Virus record (IMG/VR): IMGVR_UViG_3300035501_000484
Span: 64,001 to 128,000 of that record
Strand: one strand, 5' to 3'
Length of the DNA stretch: 64,000 bases
Source of the DNA: a virus
The position numbers were made by a program, and so were the translations under genes. Below the pieces are notes generated by a model, which made no database searches, was not told the DNA's origin, and saw only the letters and a program-made list of their open reading frames with translations. Below are positions 2,050 to 24,735 of this stretch, one piece after another. Position 1 is the stretch's first letter. Every line of letters starts with the position of its first letter.

Positions 2050-2230
2050 TAAGAGAAGGTTATGTTTTAGGTTGGAAGAGAGTGGATAAATATAATATAA
2101 TATATAATTATTTGAGTGGGTTAGAGTGAAATATATTGTATAATTAGTATAATATTATAGAGAGGTGTTATATAATAATAATATAATATAATATATAATA
2201 TATTAATTTATATAATTTTAATGGAGTATT
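2050..2230. repeat. extreme AT-rich (TA)n-like tract; candidate DNA-unwinding element
   Basis: About 180 bp almost purely A/T with repeated 'ataatataatatataat' units. It follows the iteron-like repeats. Confidence 0.45.
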
Positions 2231-2379
2231 TATCGTATTTAATTAAGTTTAATAAGCAGTTTTATATAATTTAGCAAATATTTAACAAACATTTAGGCAG
2301 TAGAGGTGCGACCGGTATCAAGGCTCATGCAACCCTGGCCGCGACCATAGACACTCAATATTCGCTTTCCGCATTAAAA

Positions 2380-2403
2380 AAAGAGCCTTAGTGAAGGCTC
2401 TTT
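2380..2403 (-). terminator. rho-independent terminator (bidirectional form)
   Basis: AAAGAGCCTT-agtg-AAGGCTCTTT with an A7 run upstream on plus (a T-run on minus). Confidence 0.6.
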
Positions 2404-2759
2404 AGGAACTCCGCAATTATATCATCTGGATTCTTATCTTTTGTATTTACTTTTGTTACTTTAATTTCGACTGGGGCAATCTCATTCTCTAGTACCTTTA
2501 ATATCTCTACCATACCATCAAATGTTTCATCTGTAAGTGAAAATGGCTCTGATATGCCAAGAGCGACCATATATCCATCAACTGCGTGAATTACATTAGC
2601 TCTAGCTAACTCTATAGTCTCATTCTTTGTTGCCTCTTCTTGCTCTTGTTTTATCTCATCTAAGGCTGTTGCTATATCCTCTTCAATCTGATTAAGGATA
2701 TCATCTGAAGTCAACCCCTGCTTTAATAAGTCTTTTATTGGTAAGTCTTTGAAGTTCAT
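2388..2759 (-). CDS. hypothetical acidic early protein
   Basis: 123-aa ORF. Terminator hairpin 2380-2403 overlaps its stop codon, with an A-run upstream on plus (a T-run on minus). Confidence 0.6.
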   Translation of the reverse strand: MNFKDLPIKDLLKQGLTSDDILNQIEEDIATALDEIKQEQEEATKNETIELARANVIHAVDGYMVALGISEPFSLTDETFDGMVEILKVLENEIAPVEIKVTKVNTKDKNPDDIIAEFLKSLH

Positions 2760-3022
2760 ATATATATCATTTCTCCTTTTAATTATTTTATTTCTTTACT
2801 TTATATAAATATTATAACAAAAATTTTTATATTTTTCAAATGTGAGAGTGAGGCGGAATTTTCTATTATTGAACTTAGTTAGCTCCTAAAAATTGTGCTA
2901 TGAAAACAGTTTTATGAGTATTTGTCAGAAAGTAGCAAATTGCTAAAATTATCGAGGCAAATTTTGGTGCGTAGAAAAAATAGCTTTTTTTAATATTATA
3001 TCAAAAATTTTTGTGAATGTCA

Positions 3023-3116
3023 AATAACTAGCAAAAAGGCGGGCATATCAGGTAATTTCGGGATTTCGGTCGCCGGGCGAAAGGTCAAACAACTAGCGAA
3101 AAAAGGGGCATATGGG
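3023..3116. repeat. pair of ~30-bp direct repeats
   Basis: aaataactagcaaaaaggcgggcatatcagg at 3023-3052 and aaacaactagcgaaaaaaggggcatatgggg at 3087-3116, followed by a 9-bp-stem hairpin at 3134-3158. Confidence 0.45.
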
Positions 3117-3281
3117 GTGTGGGACGCGAACTCGGAGCGTCTCTAAAGAAGACGCTCCTGCAAGTATAACATCTCAACCGCACTTTGTCAATAGGTAAAA
3201 TTAATAAAATTTTTATTGATTTTTGTATATATTTTTCTTGACTTTTCGCTCGCACGTGCGGTTTACATAAGAAAAGAGAGG

Positions 3282-5951: not shown

Positions 5952-6671
5952 TTATTTAAACACCTGTCTCAATTCTAATTCTTTTCTTTTCTTTTGTGGC
6001 AACCGCCAACAAGCTGTATTAATAGATTTATCCATTTTCTTATGAGTGGCAAAACATTTTGCCATAATTTCAACTTCAATTTCTACATCTTCTAAACCTG
6101 TATGACTTTCTACAAAATCAGTATAATTTGTAAGATATTTATAACAACATTCTGCCGAAGTTTGAATGTTATTTTTTTCACTAACTAATCCATTCTGTAA
6201 AGCAAATTTTATATATGTAGTTCTATTTAGCACAGTTTGGCAAGCCATGTTCCAAATACAAAAGTATTCAGTCCCAAAAGGAAAAAACCACCTAATTAAT
6301 GATTTACTATGATAGCGAATTGCATTGTTTAAAGCTCTTTTATCAAAGCCCATGTTATAAGCACCAACTTTTTTAATTTTCCATGCTTTCATGTCAGTAT
6401 GTACTTGTTTTCTGATATTAAAAATAGATTTAATTGTTCTGTCACCATTTTTAATATCTTCCCAATATTGAGGAATTTTTTCAGCGAAATATGCACTTTT
6501 CATCATTTCTTGATTATCCAAAAAAGTTTCCGCAACTACATAACTTCTTCTTAAAACAATGTTACCTTTTCTATCTGTGATTGCATATCCAACATCATAA
6601 GGTAGTGGCTGTTCAATTGTGTTCGCTGTTTCTGTGTCAATTACTAAAAAGTATTCTTTTCTTCTTCCCAT
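5952..6671 (-). CDS. DEDDh-type 3'-5' exonuclease (DnaQ-like fold)
   Basis: FLVIDTETAN is an Exo I DxE motif. YNMGFDKRAL is an Exo II motif. HTGLEDVEIE is an Exo III H-x4-D motif. Promoter TTGATT-17-TATAAT lies at 6705-6733 (minus). Confidence 0.75.
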   Translation of the reverse strand: MGRRKEYFLVIDTETANTIEQPLPYDVGYAITDRKGNIVLRRSYVVAETFLDNQEMMKSAYFAEKIPQYWEDIKNGDRTIKSIFNIRKQVHTDMKAWKIKKVGAYNMGFDKRALNNAIRYHSKSLIRWFFPFGTEYFCIWNMACQTVLNRTTYIKFALQNGLVSEKNNIQTSAECCYKYLTNYTDFVESHTGLEDVEIEVEIMAKCFATHKKMDKSINTACWRLPQKKRKELELRQVFK

Positions 6672-18963: not shown

Positions 18964-20139
18964 ATGGAAAATAAAAATTCACTTCTTTCTGATGAAGAGT
19001 TTAATGATAAGATTCAAGAAAAAGCAGATAAAAAAATTGAAGAACAAATCATTGAAGAGAATATCAAGCCGACTAGGAAATTAGATTATTCTTTAAAAAC
19101 ACCTGAAGAAAGAAACGAATTAGTTAAAAAAATTATTGATGAAACTCCTCCTGAACAGCTTACTAACAGATATTTAGAAATTTTGAGCGATTATATTATT
19201 TTTGCTATGGATAAGAAAGAAAGACAACAAAAGAAAATTTTAACTGATAATAGAATGGTAACTGTAAACAAGAGAGAAACATCATTTCAAGGATTAGCAG
19301 GGCAGCTTGAAAATGGAGAAGATGGTATATATAATATGATTGCAAATGACAAAAATATTATTTTTACTCCAAAAATTGAGATTACTCAAAAGGATATAGA
19401 TGAAATTCCTGCATTAAAAGATTTAGTTGCGGCAATTAAAGAAGTTGAAAAACAAGCTAAGACGGCAACTGGTAAAAAGAAATTTTTATTAATGAAACAA
19501 TTAATTGAAATGCGGAGAGACCAGTATGAAATTAGAAAGGCTTACCGCCAACCAATGTATTTTACAAATGCAATAAAAAGTTTTTCAAAGATGTCTTTTG
19601 ATGAACATATAGAAATTACTCCAGAAGGAGAAATTAAGAGTAATGGACTAGTATCATTCTTTAATCCGAAGCATATTTCTGCATTACTTTGTAATTATTC
19701 AAGATTAAAAGAAGATTCTTGGGGTAAGTTTTGGTCTGATTCTTATTTTTTAATGGAAGATTTAGATAATTTAATTGAAAAAACTTTAAAAGATAAATAC
19801 CCGCTTTATTACGATCTCTTGATTTATAAAATTGATGGGAAACCTAATGCGGAAATACAAAAATTATTATATGAAAAACATGGAATTAAACATTCAGTAG
19901 AATATTTATCATCTTTATGGAGAAATAAAATTCCTAAGTTATTGGCGGAGCAAGCTCAAGAAGATTATATAGATTGGTATTATTTAACACAAGAGTATGG
20001 TAAATATAAACGTTGCTCAAGATGTGGACAAATTAAATTAGCGGATAATAGATTTTTTTCAAAAAATAAAACTTCAAAAGATGGATTTTACAGTATATGC
20101 AAGGATTGTAGAAACCATAAAACTAGCTTAAAGAAGTAA
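18964..20139 (+). CDS. hypothetical protein with C-terminal zinc ribbon
   Basis: 391 aa. C-terminal CSRCGQ…CKDC. First gene downstream of plus promoter 18903-18931. Confidence 0.6.
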   Translation: MENKNSLLSDEEFNDKIQEKADKKIEEQIIEENIKPTRKLDYSLKTPEERNELVKKIIDETPPEQLTNRYLEILSDYIIFAMDKKERQQKKILTDNRMVTVNKRETSFQGLAGQLENGEDGIYNMIANDKNIIFTPKIEITQKDIDEIPALKDLVAAIKEVEKQAKTATGKKKFLLMKQLIEMRRDQYEIRKAYRQPMYFTNAIKSFSKMSFDEHIEITPEGEIKSNGLVSFFNPKHISALLCNYSRLKEDSWGKFWSDSYFLMEDLDNLIEKTLKDKYPLYYDLLIYKIDGKPNAEIQKLLYEKHGIKHSVEYLSSLWRNKIPKLLAEQAQEDYIDWYYLTQEYGKYKRCSRCGQIKLADNRFFSKNKTSKDGFYSICKDCRNHKTSLKK

Positions 20140-20154
20140 TGAAAGGAGGCTATT

Positions 20155-21381
20155 ATGCCTAGTTGTGTATGTCAAAAATGCGGAAAGACAATGGATGTTA
20201 AGCAATTTTATACATATAAAAATGGTAGTAAAACTGAATTATGTAAGAAATGTTTAACTATGCATGTTGACCCCTTTAATCCTGATACTTATGTATGGTT
20301 AATGGAAAAAATGGATGTCCCATATTTACCAGAAGAATGGAATGTATTAAGAGATAAAGACTATGCCAAAAATCCAGCTAAATTAAGTGGAATGGCGGTA
20401 TTTGGTAAATATCTTTCTAAGATGAAATTAAAGCAATATGTGGATAAAGAAACAGGCAAACCATATGGATACGCGGATTCTGAAAGATTACAAAATAAAA
20501 ATTTACAAAAGAAACAAGAAGAAATAGAAGCACAAAAGAAATTTGAAGAAGATACATTAGCAGCTTATGAGCGTGGAGAAATTAGTGAATCACAGTATAA
20601 AACTTTAACAAGTACAGAAGCTCAGCATCAAGCTGCGGAAGCTGCCTTTGCAGCGGGAACATCAACACCTCCCGTGCCATTTATAGGTAATAATAATCCA
20701 TATAATGAAGATAATTTTATGAGCGAGGATGAATTAGCAAATCCCGCGGCAGATTTAACTGAAGAAGATAGATTATATTTAGCTATGAAATGGGGCAGAT
20801 TATATAAACCTAATGAATGGGTTGAACTTGAAAAGAAATATACTGAAATGATGCAGTCTTTTGATATACAAGATTCTGATACTACAGGAACTTTGATTCT
20901 TATCTGTAAAACATATCTTAAGATGAACCAAGCGATCGACGTGGGTGATATGGATGGGTTTCAAAAGCTTTCAAGGGTGTATGATTCGTTACGAAAGTCA
21001 GCTAAATTTACCGCAGCGCAGAATAAAGAAGACAAAAATGACTTTGTTGATTCTGTTGGTGAATTAGTCACTATGTGTGAAAAAGAAGGTTTCATTCCTA
21101 GATATGCTACTGACATCCCGCAAGATAAAGTTGATGTCACATTAAAAGACATGAATAATTATGTTAAAAAACTTGTAACTCAAGATTTAGGTTTTGGTCA
21201 ACAAATTGAAGATTCAATTAAGAAATTACAAATTCAGAAAGAAATGCGTGAATCTGATGATGGATTTGATTTTGAAGATGATGAAAAACCATTAGAAACA
21301 CAAGATTATGAAGAATTTTTTGACCAGATTCAAGAGCAAAAAGAAAAAGATTTAAAAATTTTTACTGAGGAGGAAGGATAA
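20155..21381 (+). CDS. zinc-ribbon protein; possible terminase small subunit (by position only)
   Basis: 408 aa. N-terminal CVCQKCGK…CKKC. Its stop overlaps the start of the terminase large subunit (ATGG at 21381). Confidence 0.55.
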   Translation: MPSCVCQKCGKTMDVKQFYTYKNGSKTELCKKCLTMHVDPFNPDTYVWLMEKMDVPYLPEEWNVLRDKDYAKNPAKLSGMAVFGKYLSKMKLKQYVDKETGKPYGYADSERLQNKNLQKKQEEIEAQKKFEEDTLAAYERGEISESQYKTLTSTEAQHQAAEAAFAAGTSTPPVPFIGNNNPYNEDNFMSEDELANPAADLTEEDRLYLAMKWGRLYKPNEWVELEKKYTEMMQSFDIQDSDTTGTLILICKTYLKMNQAIDVGDMDGFQKLSRVYDSLRKSAKFTAAQNKEDKNDFVDSVGELVTMCEKEGFIPRYATDIPQDKVDVTLKDMNNYVKKLVTQDLGFGQQIEDSIKKLQIQKEMRESDDGFDFEDDEKPLETQDYEEFFDQIQEQKEKDLKIFTEEEG

Positions 21382-22952
21382 TGGCATTAGCAGATTTAAT
21401 GGAATTATCTTTATCTAAAGGTAAAAAAATAGGTTTGTCAGAAGAGCGTATTAAAGAGCAAATTCCTATATTGCGGCAGTACATTGCTTTTTGGCGCGAA
21501 TACCCAGATATATTTGTAGATTTTCTTTGTGGAGATAATCCTGAAAATTTCTCTCTATATTTTTATCAACGCATATTTCTGCGCGGAGTTATGCGTCATA
21601 GATATGCATACGCGACCTTTCCACGAGCGTACTCGAAATCTTTTCTTTCGGTTTTGATATTAATGCTTCGTTGTATCTTATTCCCTGGAAGTCACTTATT
21701 CGTAACCACAGGTGGAAAAGAGCAAGCTGCAGGTATTGCAAAAGAAAAAGTAGAGGAATTATGTAAGTTAATTCCGGGTATAAGAAATGAAATTGATTGG
21801 ACGCGTGGTGTATCTAAATCATCTAAGGATAATGTTGAATATGTATTTAAAAATAAAAGCCGATTAGATATCATGGCGGCAAGACAGTCTTCGCGTGGTA
21901 AACGTGCGACTGGAGGATTAGTTGAGGAGTGCATTTTGGTAGATCAGACCATGCTTAATGAAGTAATCATACCTACCATGAATGTCAACAGGCGACTACC
22001 TGATGGCTCTAGACATGAAGAAGAAACTGTAAATAAGAGTCAAATATTTGTAACAACCGCGGGTTGGAAGAATACATTTGCATATGAAAAACTTCTACAA
22101 ACATTAATTCAACAAATTATAGACCCAGATGAAGCTATCGTATTAGGTGGAACTTGGCGAGTTCCTGTTATGGAAAAATTGCTTCAAAAGAGCTTTATTG
22201 AAGAATTAAAGATGGATGGAACTTATAATGATGCGTCCTTTGCGCGTGAATATGAGTCTGAATGGAGTGGGGACGCGGAGAATGCTTTCTTCTCGTCTGA
22301 AAAAATAGACAAATACCGAGTTTTACTGCAACCAGAGTATGAGTTCAGCGGTCGTTCATCGAAATCCGCGTATTATGTTTTAGGAGTTGACGTTGGTAGA
22401 TTGGATTGCACTACCGAGGTTTGTGTAATCAAAGTAACGCCGCAGCCGCAAGGAAGTTCATTAAAAACTCTCGTTAACCTTTATACTTTTGATGAAGAAC
22501 ATTTTGAACAACAAGCTATTAATATTAAAAAACTTTATTATAAATATAAAGCAAGAGCAATTGCACTTGATGCTAATGGTATCGGAGCTGGATTAGTAGA
22601 TTACATGGTAAAAGGGCAAGAAGATATTGATGGTACTTATTTACCTCCTTTTGGTGTAGATAACGATGAAAAAGGTGACTATAAAAAGTATAGAACTGAT
22701 GATATGGAAAGAGATGCTTTATTTTTAATTAAAGCAAATGCCCCAATGAATACAGAAGCTCATGCTTATGTTCAAGTCCAATTAGCCAGTGGAAAAATTA
22801 AATTTTTAATTGATGAACAGCAAGCTAAAAATAAATTAATGGGAACTAAAGTTGGACAAGCTATGGATGCTACTAAACGTGCAGAATATCTCAAACCTTT
22901 TGTTTTAACCTCGATTCTTCGTGAACAAATGCTAGGTAATTTGGCAGCATAA
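21381..22952 (+). CDS. terminase large subunit (possibly 5' exon of an intron-split gene)
   Basis: 523 aa. Deviant Walker-A-like ATFPRAYSKSF and a Walker-B-like LVEECILVDQ. Sits directly upstream of the portal-like gene. A group I intron core starts immediately after the stop codon. Confidence 0.55.
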   Translation: MALADLMELSLSKGKKIGLSEERIKEQIPILRQYIAFWREYPDIFVDFLCGDNPENFSLYFYQRIFLRGVMRHRYAYATFPRAYSKSFLSVLILMLRCILFPGSHLFVTTGGKEQAAGIAKEKVEELCKLIPGIRNEIDWTRGVSKSSKDNVEYVFKNKSRLDIMAARQSSRGKRATGGLVEECILVDQTMLNEVIIPTMNVNRRLPDGSRHEEETVNKSQIFVTTAGWKNTFAYEKLLQTLIQQIIDPDEAIVLGGTWRVPVMEKLLQKSFIEELKMDGTYNDASFAREYESEWSGDAENAFFSSEKIDKYRVLLQPEYEFSGRSSKSAYYVLGVDVGRLDCTTEVCVIKVTPQPQGSSLKTLVNLYTFDEEHFEQQAINIKKLYYKYKARAIALDANGIGAGLVDYMVKGQEDIDGTYLPPFGVDNDEKGDYKKYRTDDMERDALFLIKANAPMNTEAHAYVQVQLASGKIKFLIDEQQAKNKLMGTKVGQAMDATKRAEYLKPFVLTSILREQMLGNLAA

Positions 22953-24136
22953 ACAGTAATGTTTATGAATAATAACCTTTCTAATTGCGGGAAACTCCAA
23001 AAATTTTAAAATTTTTGGACAATCCGCAGCAAAGTTATTTATATAATTTTTACATTCTTATGGAAGGAAAAACTTTATGGAGGTAAGAATGTAATTATGA
23101 AAAAATTAATTATTAACAACATAGAAACTGATTATGATATAAATGAACAAGGAGAAATTTATAGTCATAAAACTAATAAAACTTTAACTGGTACTGTTTA
23201 TAATACTGGTTATAAAATGGTAAGACTAACAACTAAAGAAGGAAAAAAAGGATATGCAGTGCATAGATTAGTTGCAGAAACTTTTATTCCTAATCCAGAT
23301 AATTTGCCTATTGTAAATCATAAAGACGGAAATAAATTAAATAATTGCGTAGATAATTTAGAATGGGTAACTCAATCAGAAAATAGAGTTCATGCAATAA
23401 AAACTGAAATAAGTAAATTAGCGACTGGAAAAAGAATAAAAATAGATTTAGATAATAGTGATAAAGATTGGAAACAATATCAAAATACTAATTATATGGT
23501 ATCTAAAGATGGAGAAGTATATAATACTAAAACCAATATTATATTAAAACAAACCCCAAACAAAAGTGGATATATTAGATATACATTAAGAATTAATAAT
23601 CAAAACGTATCAAAACAAGCTCATATCTTAGTGATGGAAGTTTGGGGAAATCAAGAAATTTTATCTAATCAAGTTGTTAATCATAAAGATGGAAATAAGA
23701 CCAACAATAACATAGAAAACTTAGAAGTCGTTTCAAAAAGTGAAAATACTATTCATGCTTGTTATCAACTGAATAAATTGGTTAAACCAGTTATCCAAAC
23801 AACGATAGATAATAAAGAAATTCAATATCCAAGTATTTCAGAGGCGGCAAGAATATTAAAAGTAACTGATGGCGCAATTCGGTATGCATTAAAAAATAAT
23901 TCTAAATGTTGTAATAGTTATTGGAAATATAAATAAAATGTTCAACGACTATCCCGTGGGAAGATGAGAAGCTTCTATAGGAGTAGGGCCGAAGCTAATG
24001 CGGTGGGTGAGAACCCCTTAAATCGAAATGGAAGGCTCCTTAATTGAAATTGAGGATGAAGATATAGTCTAATCTCTAGTGAAAGCTAGAGCTGTAATAA
24101 CAGATATAATTTTGCGAATTATATGAATATAAATGG
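22953..24136 (+). mobile_element. group I intron (IA-like core) carrying an HNH homing-endonuclease ORF
   Basis: P element AATTGCGGGAAA at 22983-22994. P5 hairpin at 22995-23018. Q element AATCCGCAGC at 23021-23030. An 11-bp hairpin (P6a, 23050-23094) sequesters the ORF's GGAGG RBS. R element GTTCAACGACTA at 23940-23951. S element AAGATATAGTC at 24059-24069. P9 hairpin at 24074-24091, plus hairpins at 24092-24103 and 24104-24124. The exact splice sites were not determined. Confidence 0.7.
23097..23936 (+). CDS. HNH homing endonuclease (tandem HNH_3-type domains), intron-encoded
   Basis: Two copies of the HNH signature: VNHKDGNKLNNCVDNLEWVTQSENRVHA and VNHKDGNKTNNNIENLEVVSKSENTIHA. The ORF lies between the intron Q and R elements. 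Confidence 0.8.
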   Translation: MKKLIINNIETDYDINEQGEIYSHKTNKTLTGTVYNTGYKMVRLTTKEGKKGYAVHRLVAETFIPNPDNLPIVNHKDGNKLNNCVDNLEWVTQSENRVHAIKTEISKLATGKRIKIDLDNSDKDWKQYQNTNYMVSKDGEVYNTKTNIILKQTPNKSGYIRYTLRINNQNVSKQAHILVMEVWGNQEILSNQVVNHKDGNKTNNNIENLEVVSKSENTIHACYQLNKLVKPVIQTTIDNKEIQYPSISEAARILKVTDGAIRYALKNNSKCCNSYWKYK

Positions 24137-24310
24137 AATCTTGTGGAGCAAAATGATGGAATTAATATTATCTTAAAACAATCGACTAAAGCAGTTAAGA
24201 AGGATAAATTTTCTGCTTTTGAGTATGGTTTATATTATATTAAACAAGAGGAAGAAAGAAAGCGTAAGAGAAGACATAGCGGAATTGGACAAATGATGTT
24301 TTTCACTTAA
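24110..24310 (+). CDS. start-less in-frame ORF; candidate 3' exon of the intron-split gene
   Basis: Stop-to-stop ORF of 66 codons with no ATG until its last 5 codons (…NLVEQNDGINIILKQSTKAVKKDKFSAFEYGLYYIKQEEERKRKRRHSGIGQMMFFT*). It begins inside the intron's 3' helices. Confidence 0.25.
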   Translation, partial: FCELYEYKWNLVEQNDGINIILKQSTKAVKKDKFSAFEYGLYYIKQEEERKRKRRHSGIGQMMFFT

Positions 24311-24378
24311 AAATTTGGGTAGAAGTAAGAAAAATAATTAAAAGTTTTTTAAAGTAAAGTATAATAAGGAGGACACGA

Positions 24379-24735
24379 ATGAGAGCATCTAGAGGGGAAA
24401 TCAAGATAGAAGAAATTTTGGCGGATGCCGGCTTAAATTTTCAAGAAGAATATAGTTTTCCTGACCTTGTAAGTACGAATGGTCGTGCGTTGAGGTTCGA
24501 TTTTGCTGTCTTTGATGATAATGATGAATTAGATTTTTTAATAGAGTTTCAAGGGATACAACATTATGAGCCGAAGAGTAAATTTGGCGGATTGTCAGGT
24601 TTGCGGAAACAGCAATTTAATGATATGCAAAAAAGGGAGTATTGTGCTAAGCATGGATACACCCTGATTGCTATACCCTATTGGGATGAACCTAGAGTTG
24701 ACTACGATTACATCATGACAGCCGCAGGCTATTAA
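24379..24735 (+). CDS. DUF559/Vsr-like (PD-(D/E)xK fold) putative endonuclease
   Basis: 118 aa with RFDFAVFDD…LDFLIEFQGIQHYEP. This resembles the D…(I/V)E(x)DG-x-QH core of DUF559 / very-short-patch-repair-like nucleases. Adjacent to the intron and HEG. Confidence 0.4.
   Translation: MRASRGEIKIEEILADAGLNFQEEYSFPDLVSTNGRALRFDFAVFDDNDELDFLIEFQGIQHYEPKSKFGGLSGLRKQQFNDMQKREYCAKHGYTLIAIPYWDEPRVDYDYIMTAAGY

Follow-up and report, generated by a model that had tools for sequence, protein, structure and literature searches.

A probable mobile group I intron carrying an I-HmuI-like homing endonuclease gene in the terminase large-subunit gene of an uncultivated gut phage

The terminase large-subunit gene (terL) in the window, which here means the whole 64,000-nt stretch of viral DNA that was analysed, is read from its sequence as split by a group I intron that contains an HNH endonuclease gene, inside codon Leu518 and 57 codons before the true end of the gene. 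We conclude with high confidence that the insertion is a mobile intron of the subgroup-IA type, spliced out to give a 575-aa TerL and carrying an I-HmuI-like homing endonuclease. The intron occupies positions 22934-24135 on the plus strand (1202 nt, its first base following the U of the 5' splice site and its last being omega-G). Exon 1 (21381..22933, plus strand; placed by the ORF list and a PHROG match) provides codons 1-517 and the CU that begins codon Leu518, and exon 2 (24136..24310, plus strand) the third base of that codon, 57 codons and the stop. When joined in silico the exons are in frame and encode 575 aa, which is the length of the closest homologues and 52 aa more than the 523 aa of the called ORF. 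The in-frame UAA (TAA in the DNA, 22950-22952) that ends the mis-called 523-aa ORF sits in helix P2 of the intron. A sequence-only reading of the same DNA had suspected that the terminase stop is intronic and that the mature protein gains about 50-60 aa, and both suspicions are borne out. The start-less ORF that it had marked at 24110-24310 is also present, but exon 2 begins only at 24136, and 24110-24135 is part of the P9.2 hairpin and the tail of the intron.

The conserved sequence elements proposed for the ribozyme core were all found in place, namely P (AATTGCGGGAAA, 22983-22994), Q (AATCCGCAGC, 23021-23030), R (GTTCAACGACTA, 23940-23951) and S (AAGATATAGTC, 24059-24069), the last two being the sole exact copies in the window, together with the P9 hairpin (24074-24091). 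The helices all lie on the plus strand. In P1 (22930..22946) exon UGCU (22930-33) is bound by GGCA of the internal guide (22943-46), the splice site being marked by a U.G wobble (U22933.G22943); this helix is invariant in 8/8 variants. P10 pairs guide AUUU (22939-42) with exon 2 GAAU (24136-39); it has 4 bp only and is weaker in some of the eight variants, in which 93.5% of its cells are paired and G.U becomes A-U where exon 2 begins with A. The intron ends in ...AAUG in all variants; the U.G splice pair, omega-G and P10 of group I introns are all present. The P2 hairpin (22948..22967, CAUAAACA-GUAA-UGUUUAUG) shows compensatory changes in 5/8 pairs. The Rfam alignment places the 5' strand of P3 at 22976-81, P4 at 22986-91 with 23023-28 (two compensatory pairs), P5 at 22996-23005 with 23010-19 (one compensatory pair) and P6 at 23029-30 (5' strand) and 23940-41 (3' strand), and P6a follows with strands at 23035-44 (5') and 23927-36 (3') and one compensatory pair. 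The 3' core consists of P7 (23945 and 23947-51 with 24065-70), P3' (24030-35) and P8 (24037-44/24049-56), and P9 (24074-79/24086-91), P9.1 (24092-95/24100-03) and P9.2 (24104-11/24117-24) are each kept in 8/8 variants.

Eight diverged variants of the intron keep P1-P10, with 98.6% of 591 pair cells paired (74 pairs in 15 helices) and compensatory changes in 18 of the 74 pairs. In slid controls, where the 3' partners were moved by 1-3 columns, pairing falls to 37-50% of cells and compensatory pairs number two at most, and none of 500 shuffles was as good as the observed pairing and compensation. The core helices P3-P9, with the P3/P7 pseudoknot, are thus backed by covariation, and the Rfam alignment gives the same P3, P4-P6, P7, P8 and P9 as the scored structure. 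The suggested scan with the group I intron model RF00028 succeeded in part. The region searched alone gave two complementary partial matches (22986-23092, 27.8 bits, E 1.2e-4; 23829-24091, 39.2 bits, E 4.8e-8), while the window copy stayed below the gathering threshold of 50 bits as one match, and a scan of the whole window gave nothing at the gathering score and nothing at E <= 0.01. Neither half reaches 50 bits because the 840-nt ORF splits the core, as is expected with such a loop insertion; ORF-less copies of the intron in the same codon score 98 bits (L154) and 84.3 bits (L180 and L188).

Four peripheral helices lie between 23952 and 24017, in the interval from P7 to P3' (23952-54/23980-82, 23960-63/23972-75, 23988-91/24001-04 and 24005-07/24015-17). 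Two of these have compensatory changes in the eight-copy set, and the remaining two covary in a wider IMG/VR family, the 3-bp P7.1 as judged by alignment inspection. In the classification of Michel and Westhof, extra helices P7.1/P7.2 between P7 and P3' mark subgroup IA (IA2-like phage introns). The intron has these helices and is of the subgroup-IA type, the name being taken from that scheme and not from a subgroup-specific model. The wider family of 3' cores is found in at least 119 IMG/VR contigs and has covarying hairpins. RNAalifold on a MAFFT alignment of these cores recovered 13 pairs only, because the variable hairpins were misaligned, and the hand-derived structure was therefore scored on the closer variants; P9.2, off by one register in MAFFT, was checked sequence by sequence. 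The 3' core (R element, peripheral P7.x, P3', S element and P9) is also 72-80% identical to stretches of Staphylococcus phage K (within its annotated split lysK) and of Bacillus phages AR9/PBS1, which differ from the present intron in their host genes (endolysin, RNA polymerase), guides and endonuclease genes.

The structure suggests how the terL pre-mRNA would be spliced. Guide GGCA would pair with the exon end UGCU to form the U.G wobble of P1, and a guanosine bound in P7 would attack after U22933; guide AUUU would then align exon 2 through P10, and attack by the freed exon after omega-G 24135 would ligate the exons and restore the 575-aa TerL. Unspliced RNA would be translated to the UAA in P2, giving a 523-aa product that lacks the conserved C-terminal 57 residues. 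Several group I introns of the Bastillevirinae splice in vivo and not in vitro (PMC11878797), and since some bona fide phage introns behave in this way, protein-independent self-splicing is not to be assumed. A need for a protein factor, such as a maturase-like activity supplied by host, phage or the intron's own ORF, would also be in line with the AT-rich core and the short P3 and P10. Such dependence nevertheless appears rather unlikely, as the ORF-less introns of L154 and L180 persist without an intron-encoded protein, core scores against RF00028 are strong and the set of peripheral helices is full. Catalytic self-splicing is the presumed route.

The intron could in principle be real and splicing-dead, which would make terL a pseudogene and the phage a decaying or defective one, and some members of the family (L176/L150) do have a decayed endonuclease ORF. 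We regard this as very improbable for the window copy, whose core pairings, U.G pair, omega-G, J8/7 and P7 sequences are intact and match functional relatives, whose two exons are open and in frame and whose endonuclease ORF is intact. The same arrangement moreover recurs on several independent contigs of up to 139.6 kb.

The boundaries of the intron are fixed to the base, because in the intron-less alleles L123-126 the DNA is contiguous at the junction, with the alignment to exon 1 stopping exactly at 22933, and because a single G precedes exon 2 in L130 and L180. With a slash for the junction, the predicted ligated sequence is ...CAAAUGCU/GAAUCUUG... (also written CAAAUGCU/GAAUCUUGUG and CAAAUGCU/GAAUCUUGUGG), intron-less L123 has ...GAGCAAATGCT/TAATCTTGTAGAAG... 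at positions ~6520-6590, and the predicted junction peptide of the spliced TerL is ...EQMLNLVEQNDGINIILK. Among the matches listed, over 100 homologues without an interruption, 575-584 aa long, continue ...REQML/NLVE... over the junction (...SILREQML-NLVEENEG... in the intron-less homologues), and all 12 C-termini inspected run through. This alignment bears out the view that the intron splits terL, which the sequence-only reading had given as an alternative to an insertion after the gene, as well as its expectation that the C-terminus continues past the intron. That TerL truly ends at ...MLGNLAA (523 aa), with an intergenic or degenerate intron and with 24110-24310 open by chance or forming a small gene of its own, would agree with how the identical contig L002 was annotated automatically (separate 523-aa and 55-aa products and an unexplained gap), but is refuted by the homologues, since none of those listed ends there and all 120 matches listed are 547-584 aa long, and is made exceedingly improbable by the contiguous intron-less DNA, by phrog_24618, which bridges the exons (profile positions 1-172 in exon 1, 178-229 in the exon 2 ORF), by the dense invariance of exon 2 (residues 519-534 unchanged in 18/18 aligned homologues) and by the absence at 24136 of both a start codon and a ribosome-binding site for exon 2. 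An exact-sequence look-up of the 523-aa ORF returned no record. The main practical effect of an intron that splits terL is that gene callers mis-annotate the gene as 523-aa and 55-aa pieces, and phylogenies or packaging predictions made from the 523-aa fragment would miss the conserved C-terminal segment. An intein or a programmed frameshift was also considered and does not fit an intervening sequence in which every frame has stops and the ribozyme core is complete; nor does an assembly chimera fit, since the same arrangement is found in independent samples.

The interrupted gene is a YonF-type terL of an SPbeta-like packaging module. The protein matches phrog_2 (E 2.4e-20) and phrog_5909 (E 1.2e-10), and in tblastn it is 45-47% identical to the annotated TerL of Geobacillus virus E3 and Enterococcus phage H1. 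The gene order is YonG_N, terL, a 118-aa gene, portal, YonD_N and YonB, so that both the sequence and the position near the portal gene are those of a terminase large subunit. No Pfam terminase model matched at its cut-off (best Terminase_6C, E 0.068), PDB sequence and profile searches for the TerL fold gave nothing meaningful, and no close relative came up among GenBank phages when the region was searched by megablast. The conservation of exon 2 suggests that it may carry a catalytic residue of the nuclease, a suggestion that draws on conservation because the AlphaFold2 model of TerL, built on a shallow 18-sequence alignment (pLDDT 37.6), was discarded.

The HNH homing-endonuclease gene (23097..23936, plus strand; 840 nt, 279 aa) lies in the P6a loop, with its stop codon in the 3' strand of P6a. 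The two HNH signatures noticed in this ORF correspond to two HNH_3 stretches in Pfam (74 bits against a cut-off of 24.8), accompanied by NUMOD4 (32 bits, cut-off 23.4) and, just under its cut-off of 22.8 bits, NUMOD1 (21.4 bits). Two [NUMOD4-like + HNH_3] modules thus come before a NUMOD1-like helix-turn-helix tail. The modules are 41% identical over 92 aa, and the motif NHKDGNK..NN..NLE..SEN..H is intact in both and conserved in five orthologues with an intact ORF. The protein has more than 100 full-length homologues and matches phrog_59 (E 4e-70) and I-HmuI (PDB 1U3E, E 1.8e-16). Just upstream of the endonuclease AUG, also in the P6a loop, is a conserved 11-bp hairpin (23050..23094, plus strand; 23050-23060 with 23084-23094; -12.4 kcal/mol, z = -3.9, 0/200 shuffles folding as well), the stem of which is kept with differing sequences in L127, L130 and L132. 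The hairpin had been described as sequestering the ribosome-binding site, which is right as to the hairpin itself; the GGAGG (23079-23083) is located at the 3' edge of its loop and is occluded rather than base-paired, because the stem covers the spacer between GGAGG and the AUG. The hairpin may act in the translation of the endonuclease gene.

I-HmuI, from the DNA-polymerase intron of Bacillus phage SPO1, is likewise encoded by a group I intron. Its N-terminal beta-rich module and HNH motif align to residues 6-99 of the present protein and its C-terminal helix-turn-helix, weakly, to residues 217-268. I-HmuI has one module and only nicks, whereas here the [NUMOD4-like + HNH] module occurs twice in tandem. 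Group I introns in terL are reportedly known from older literature on Lactobacillus phage LL-H. Splicing has been demonstrated in the Bastillevirinae for terL group I introns that carry PHROG-59 HNH genes (PMC11878797). As in the window, terL is interrupted there by a group I ribozyme with the endonuclease gene in a peripheral loop (e.g. SIOphi TerL), the ORF falls in the same PHROG (P59: HNH with NUMOD4 and I-HmuI-like domains), and some terL genes have 2-3 introns (PMC11878797), as in relatives of this phage. Unlike the Bastillevirinae, the present case concerns an uncultivated phage from the gut, ~140 kb in size, whose terL is of the SPbeta/YonF type and shares no more than 45-47% identity with that of the nearest isolates. 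Among isolates with a split terL, Enterococcus phage EF1 comes closest; its gene is interrupted around aa 198-230 and 290, in contrast to Leu518 here, 57 codons from the end. The terL of the gut-phage clade has several further intron sites in the same gene, and relatives of this phage with 2-3 introns in terL were observed.

Among relatives the Leu518 site occurs empty, with an intron containing an intact ORF, with a broken ORF (L176/L150) and with an ORF-less intron (L154/L180). The closest terL relative (80% nt identity) is without the intron, which is carried by more distant relatives with 67-71% nt identity in exon 1; in these the endonuclease ORF is 75-85% and the 3' ribozyme half 80-87% identical to those of the window. 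Between phages the intron is thus more alike than the terL genes. An IMG/VR search with the 5' splice-site and guide pattern returned 77 loci, 10 with the intron, the others not being relatives. By analogy with characterised relatives, the endonuclease would nick or cut the intron-less terL of co-infecting relatives, with sites such as GAGCAAATGCTTAATCTTGTAGAAG as putative targets, and recombinational repair would copy the intron into the cut allele (homing). The intron endonuclease of PhiPA3 has been described as a weapon in phage-phage competition (PMC11620839). We consider doubtful the combined proposal that the present enzyme is a single-chain double nickase, each HNH module cutting one strand to give a double-strand break, that it serves as a weapon against the packaging gene of intron-less co-infecting phages, and that the terL of the gut clade stands out as an intron hotspot, with six or more sites occupied and as many as four introns in a single gene. 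The type of element is already well known, a selfish phage intron that reveals no new mechanism. One site shows the life cycle of a homing intron from the empty allele through intact and broken endonuclease genes to the ORF-less intron, which makes the clade a convenient natural system for intron and endonuclease turnover. The host of the uncultivated ~140 kb clade is possibly Megamonas.

Downstream of terL and outside the intron lies a resident 118-aa gene (24379..24735, plus strand). The sequence-only reading had seen here a DUF559-like nuclease gene with a fresh promoter, suggestive of a mosaic mobile insertion. The promoter (TTAAAA-16-TATAAT) is at chance level, the scan giving 11 sites where 11.6 +/- 3.3 are expected by chance, and its -10 box is not conserved. 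The mosaic insertion is rejected because the gene also occurs, co-diverging, in intron-less relatives: it stands between terL and the portal gene in intron-less and intron-bearing relatives alike (92% identity in intron-less), and among the top 120 matches listed it is always 118 aa long and 79-92% identical. A Pfam search of the protein gave no DUF559 match and sub-threshold hits only (DUF2726 E 0.031, RAP E 0.042, RmuC E 0.089), and a PDB sequence search gave nothing. The gene product is a putative small nuclease, matching phrog_9084 'homing endonuclease' (E 1e-28) and phrog_559 (E 4e-27), and for PHROG 559 a VSR signature has been reported (PMC11878797).

The upstream ORF (21381-22952, 523 aa) matches PHROG terminase families, and phrog_24618 spans both sides of the interruption, its positions 1-172 corresponding to residues 349-518 of this ORF and its positions 178-229 to the start-less ORF at 24110-24307. 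With both pieces concatenated as query, more than 7,000 relatives were found in the database; the best 120 of these are 547-584 aa long, with 100% query coverage in nearly all. The C-termini of the homologues that were read have the form ...SILREQML-NLVEENEGVNIILKQS..., and the window pieces read ...SILREQML(GNLAA*) and (FCELYEYKW)NLVEQNDGINIILKQS... at the junction. Homologue C-termini thus run through the junction, which bears out the sequence-only reading that the large terminase gene (terL) is split by an intron and that the protein continues into the reading frame at 24110-24310. In the related intron-less contigs L123-126 the equivalent of 22933 directly adjoins that of 24136 in the alignment, which places the intron at 22934-24135 (1202 nt). 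The last base of the 5' exon is U and that of the intron is G; rejoining of CU and G would restore Leu518 and give a spliced TerL of 575 aa, equal to the closest homologues. The window sequence, ..AAUG|GAAU, leaves room for a one-base ambiguity, which is settled by the variants in L130 and L180 (..AAUG|AAAU, with a single G).

Residues 519-534 and K540-D541-K542-F543-S544-A545, all encoded by exon 2 (24136-24310), are unchanged in 18 of 18 aligned homologues. This conservation suggests that exon 2 is important to TerL, and D541 would be the final acidic residue in its RNase-H-like nuclease site. The gene order is that of an SPbeta-like packaging module (YonG_N protein, YonF-like terL, a 118-aa gene, portal, YonD_N, YonB), and the nearest isolates in TerL, Geobacillus virus E3 and Enterococcus phages H1 and EF1, share just 45-47% identity. 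Public gene calls on L002:4285-7214 (JGI 3300043101), a contig identical to the window here, give terL as 523-aa and 55-aa products with the HNH gene between them, and the intron is therefore unannotated in those calls; a look-up of the 523-aa product of the window found no exact-sequence record. Further upstream, the 391-aa ORF at 18964-20139 gave a match to a PHROG "sigma factor" family (E 1e-55) and, in its Cys-rich C-terminal end, a weak match to endonuclease VII and HNH families; relatives keep this ORF upstream of the YonG-like gene.

Inspection of the sequence confirmed all four group I core elements on the + strand, P at 22983-22994, Q at 23021-23030, R at 23940-23951 and S at 24059-24069, the last two each with one exact copy in the 64-kb window. 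In the proposed check against Rfam RF00028, a search of the whole window returned no Rfam match, either at the gathering threshold or at E <= 0.01, and a search of 22800-24500 alone gave two partial RF00028 matches on the + strand. The first (22986-23092; 27.8 bits, E 1.2e-4) covers model positions 60-138, that is P4-P6, and the second (23829-24091; 39.2 bits, E 4.8e-8) aligns well over P7' to P9; the model is split in two because the 840-nt ORF interrupts the core. ORF-less copies at the same codon score 98 bits (L154) and 84.3 bits (L180/L188) against a threshold of 50. In these copies the P6a loop measures 10-38 nt, compared with 882 nt in the window, which identifies the endonuclease gene as an insertion in L6a.

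The structure derived from the window was scored on eight distinct intron variants, over 74 pairs in 15 helices (P1, P10, P2, P3, P4, P5, P6, P6a, P7, four between P7 and P3', P8 and P9). Across these variants 98.6% of the cells are paired, and 18 of the 74 pairs show compensatory changes: five in P2, two each in P4, P8 and P9, one each in P5 and P6a, and three and two in two of the four helices between P7 and P3'. None of 500 shuffles reached the observed pairing and compensation, and moving the 3' partners by 1-3 columns left 37-50% paired with at most two compensatory pairs. P9, P9.1 and P9.2 are formed by differing sequences in all variants, and the tail after P9.2 is always 10-11 nt and ends in AAUG. 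Subgroup IA is characterised by helices between P7 and P3', and the intron is placed there by established classification, not by means of a subgroup-specific model. The R-to-S core matches at least 119 IMG/VR contigs, with covarying hairpins, and is 72-80% identical to sequence in the annotated split lysK gene of Staphylococcus phage K and in Bacillus phages AR9/PBS1; judged by these matches it is part of a large phage family.

The 840-nt ORF with two HNH stretches that had been read between Q and R is present at 23097-23936 (+ strand). Its 279-aa product contains two Pfam HNH_3 stretches (74 bits, cut-off 24.8) and NUMOD4, with NUMOD1 near threshold. It matches I-HmuI (PDB 1U3E; E 1.8e-16), with residues 6-99 aligning well and the C-terminal helix-turn-helix region weakly. 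A [NUMOD4-like + HNH_3] unit is duplicated internally (residues 11-100 and 137-227, 41% identity), and NHKDGNK..NN..NLE..SEN..H is intact in both copies, as it is in intact-ORF orthologues. I-HmuI, the characterised relative, has one module and nicks only, whereas the protein of the window has two, and it is conceivable that it acts as a single-chain double nickase. The tandem architecture is common, with full-length homologues of 275-290 aa numbering over 100, one of them encoded in another terL intron (L132); a text search of a limited set of papers found none on a tandem-HNH homing endonuclease, which is weak evidence. The ribosome-binding site had been described as sequestered in an 11-bp hairpin. 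The hairpin exists (23050-23060/23084-23094, upstream of the endonuclease AUG; z-score -3.9), and L127, L130 and L132 preserve it by compensatory changes, but GGAGG lies at the loop-stem edge, and the stem therefore covers the spacer and not the Shine-Dalgarno sequence itself. By analogy with I-TevI, the hairpin may limit translation of the endonuclease.

The intron is absent from L123, the closest relative in terL (80% nt identity), and carriers are more distant, with 67-71.5% nt identity to the window in exon 1; the best 80 of 442 IMG/VR terL relatives are all uninterrupted. At the same codon the intron occurs with an ORF in L127-129, L130/131, L132, L133, L174, L176/L150 and L158/L177/L144/L169, and without one in L154 (339 nt) and L180/L188 (352 nt). 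The endonuclease ORFs of carriers are 75-85% identical to that of the window and the 3' ribozyme halves 80-87%. Decay stages of the same element are all represented, from the broken ORF of L176/L150 (longest open stretch 103 codons) to the ORF-less introns. This pattern of presence and absence, divergence and ORF decay matches the classic cycle of homing-endonuclease-gene invasion, decay and loss. The Leu518 codon is CTT, TTA, CTG or CTA, mostly CTT or TTA, in 46 intron-less alleles (L123-126, L211-L290), and all intron-bearing alleles have GCU|G or GCU|A. Possible reasons for this T-to-G/A difference at exon-2 position +1 are a P10 requirement, co-conversion and immunity to the endonuclease.

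The nuclease gene and fresh promoter that follow had been taken as signs of a mosaic mobile insertion, and neither held up. The 118-aa gene (24379-24735, + strand) lies at the same place between terL and portal in intron-less and intron-bearing relatives, which rules it out as a passenger of the intron. Its product is always 118 aa among the best 120 matches (79-92% identity), and its divergence keeps pace with that of its neighbours (92% aa identity to L123, compared with 90.6% for TerL); these comparisons mark the gene as a resident that did not arrive with the intron. The supposed promoter, TTAAAA-16-TATAAT at 24338-24365, belongs to a set of 11 promoter-like sites, for which chance predicts 11.6 +/- 3.3, and even the closest relative does not keep it. 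Between terL and the 118-aa gene, some 60-90 nt before the latter, L132/L133 have a GC-rich, terminator-like inverted repeat (GTGGGCATTCATTATTAAATGCCCAC); the corresponding interval of the window has no such hairpin. For the 118-aa protein the label "DUF559-like" is plausible at most. The protein has sub-threshold Pfam matches only (DUF2726, RAP, RmuC) and matches PHROG 9084 and PHROG 559, the latter a terL-intron nuclease family for which a survey reports a VSR signature (PMC11878797). It is small, highly conserved and fixed in position across the clade, and it shares homology with the PHROG 559 nuclease-like domain; it may have been domesticated from a homing endonuclease, as a single domain, or may serve as an accessory nuclease in packaging. 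Close homologues of the HNH and 118-aa proteins (P0125, P0292) are named by NCBI as Megamonas funiformis proteins, which hints at Megamonas as host of the clade; one terL homologue carries a Methanobrevibacter MAG label, probably through a binning error.

Group I introns in terL are already known. Such introns split 5 of 52 terL genes in Bastillevirinae, with 2-3 introns in some of them; they carry PHROG-59 HNH genes, and their splicing has been demonstrated in vitro or in vivo (PMC11878797). The terL homologue of Enterococcus phage EF1 contains an HNH gene annotated as "phage intron", at sites that differ from Leu518. The host clade, the Leu518 site and the tandem-HNH enzyme would be mildly new here.

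In this phage clade terL is an intron hotspot. Up to four introns interrupt the gene in L158/L177/L144, L127-129, L132, L174 and L180/L188, with exon pieces of aa 1-83, 85-113, 113-347, 338-518 and 519-575 in L158 and other breakpoints near aa 113, 200, 230, 280 and 405; the encoded proteins are LAGLIDADG, GIY-YIG and further tandem-HNH. The window has the Leu518 intron only. A distant TerL in L011:1-3500 (IMGVR_UViG_3300045988_104925; 22% identity to the TerL of the window, alignment to aa 32-520) precedes a group I-type core with a P4-like GAATTGCTGGAAA near 1672, R at 1794 and S near 1903, which has no match at the Rfam gathering threshold; next come a 384-aa TnpB (2052-3206; OrfB_IS605 + Cas12f1-like TNB) and the portal gene. 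This arrangement looks like an IStron-type chimera of a group I intron and an IS605-family element, at about the same relative position in terL.
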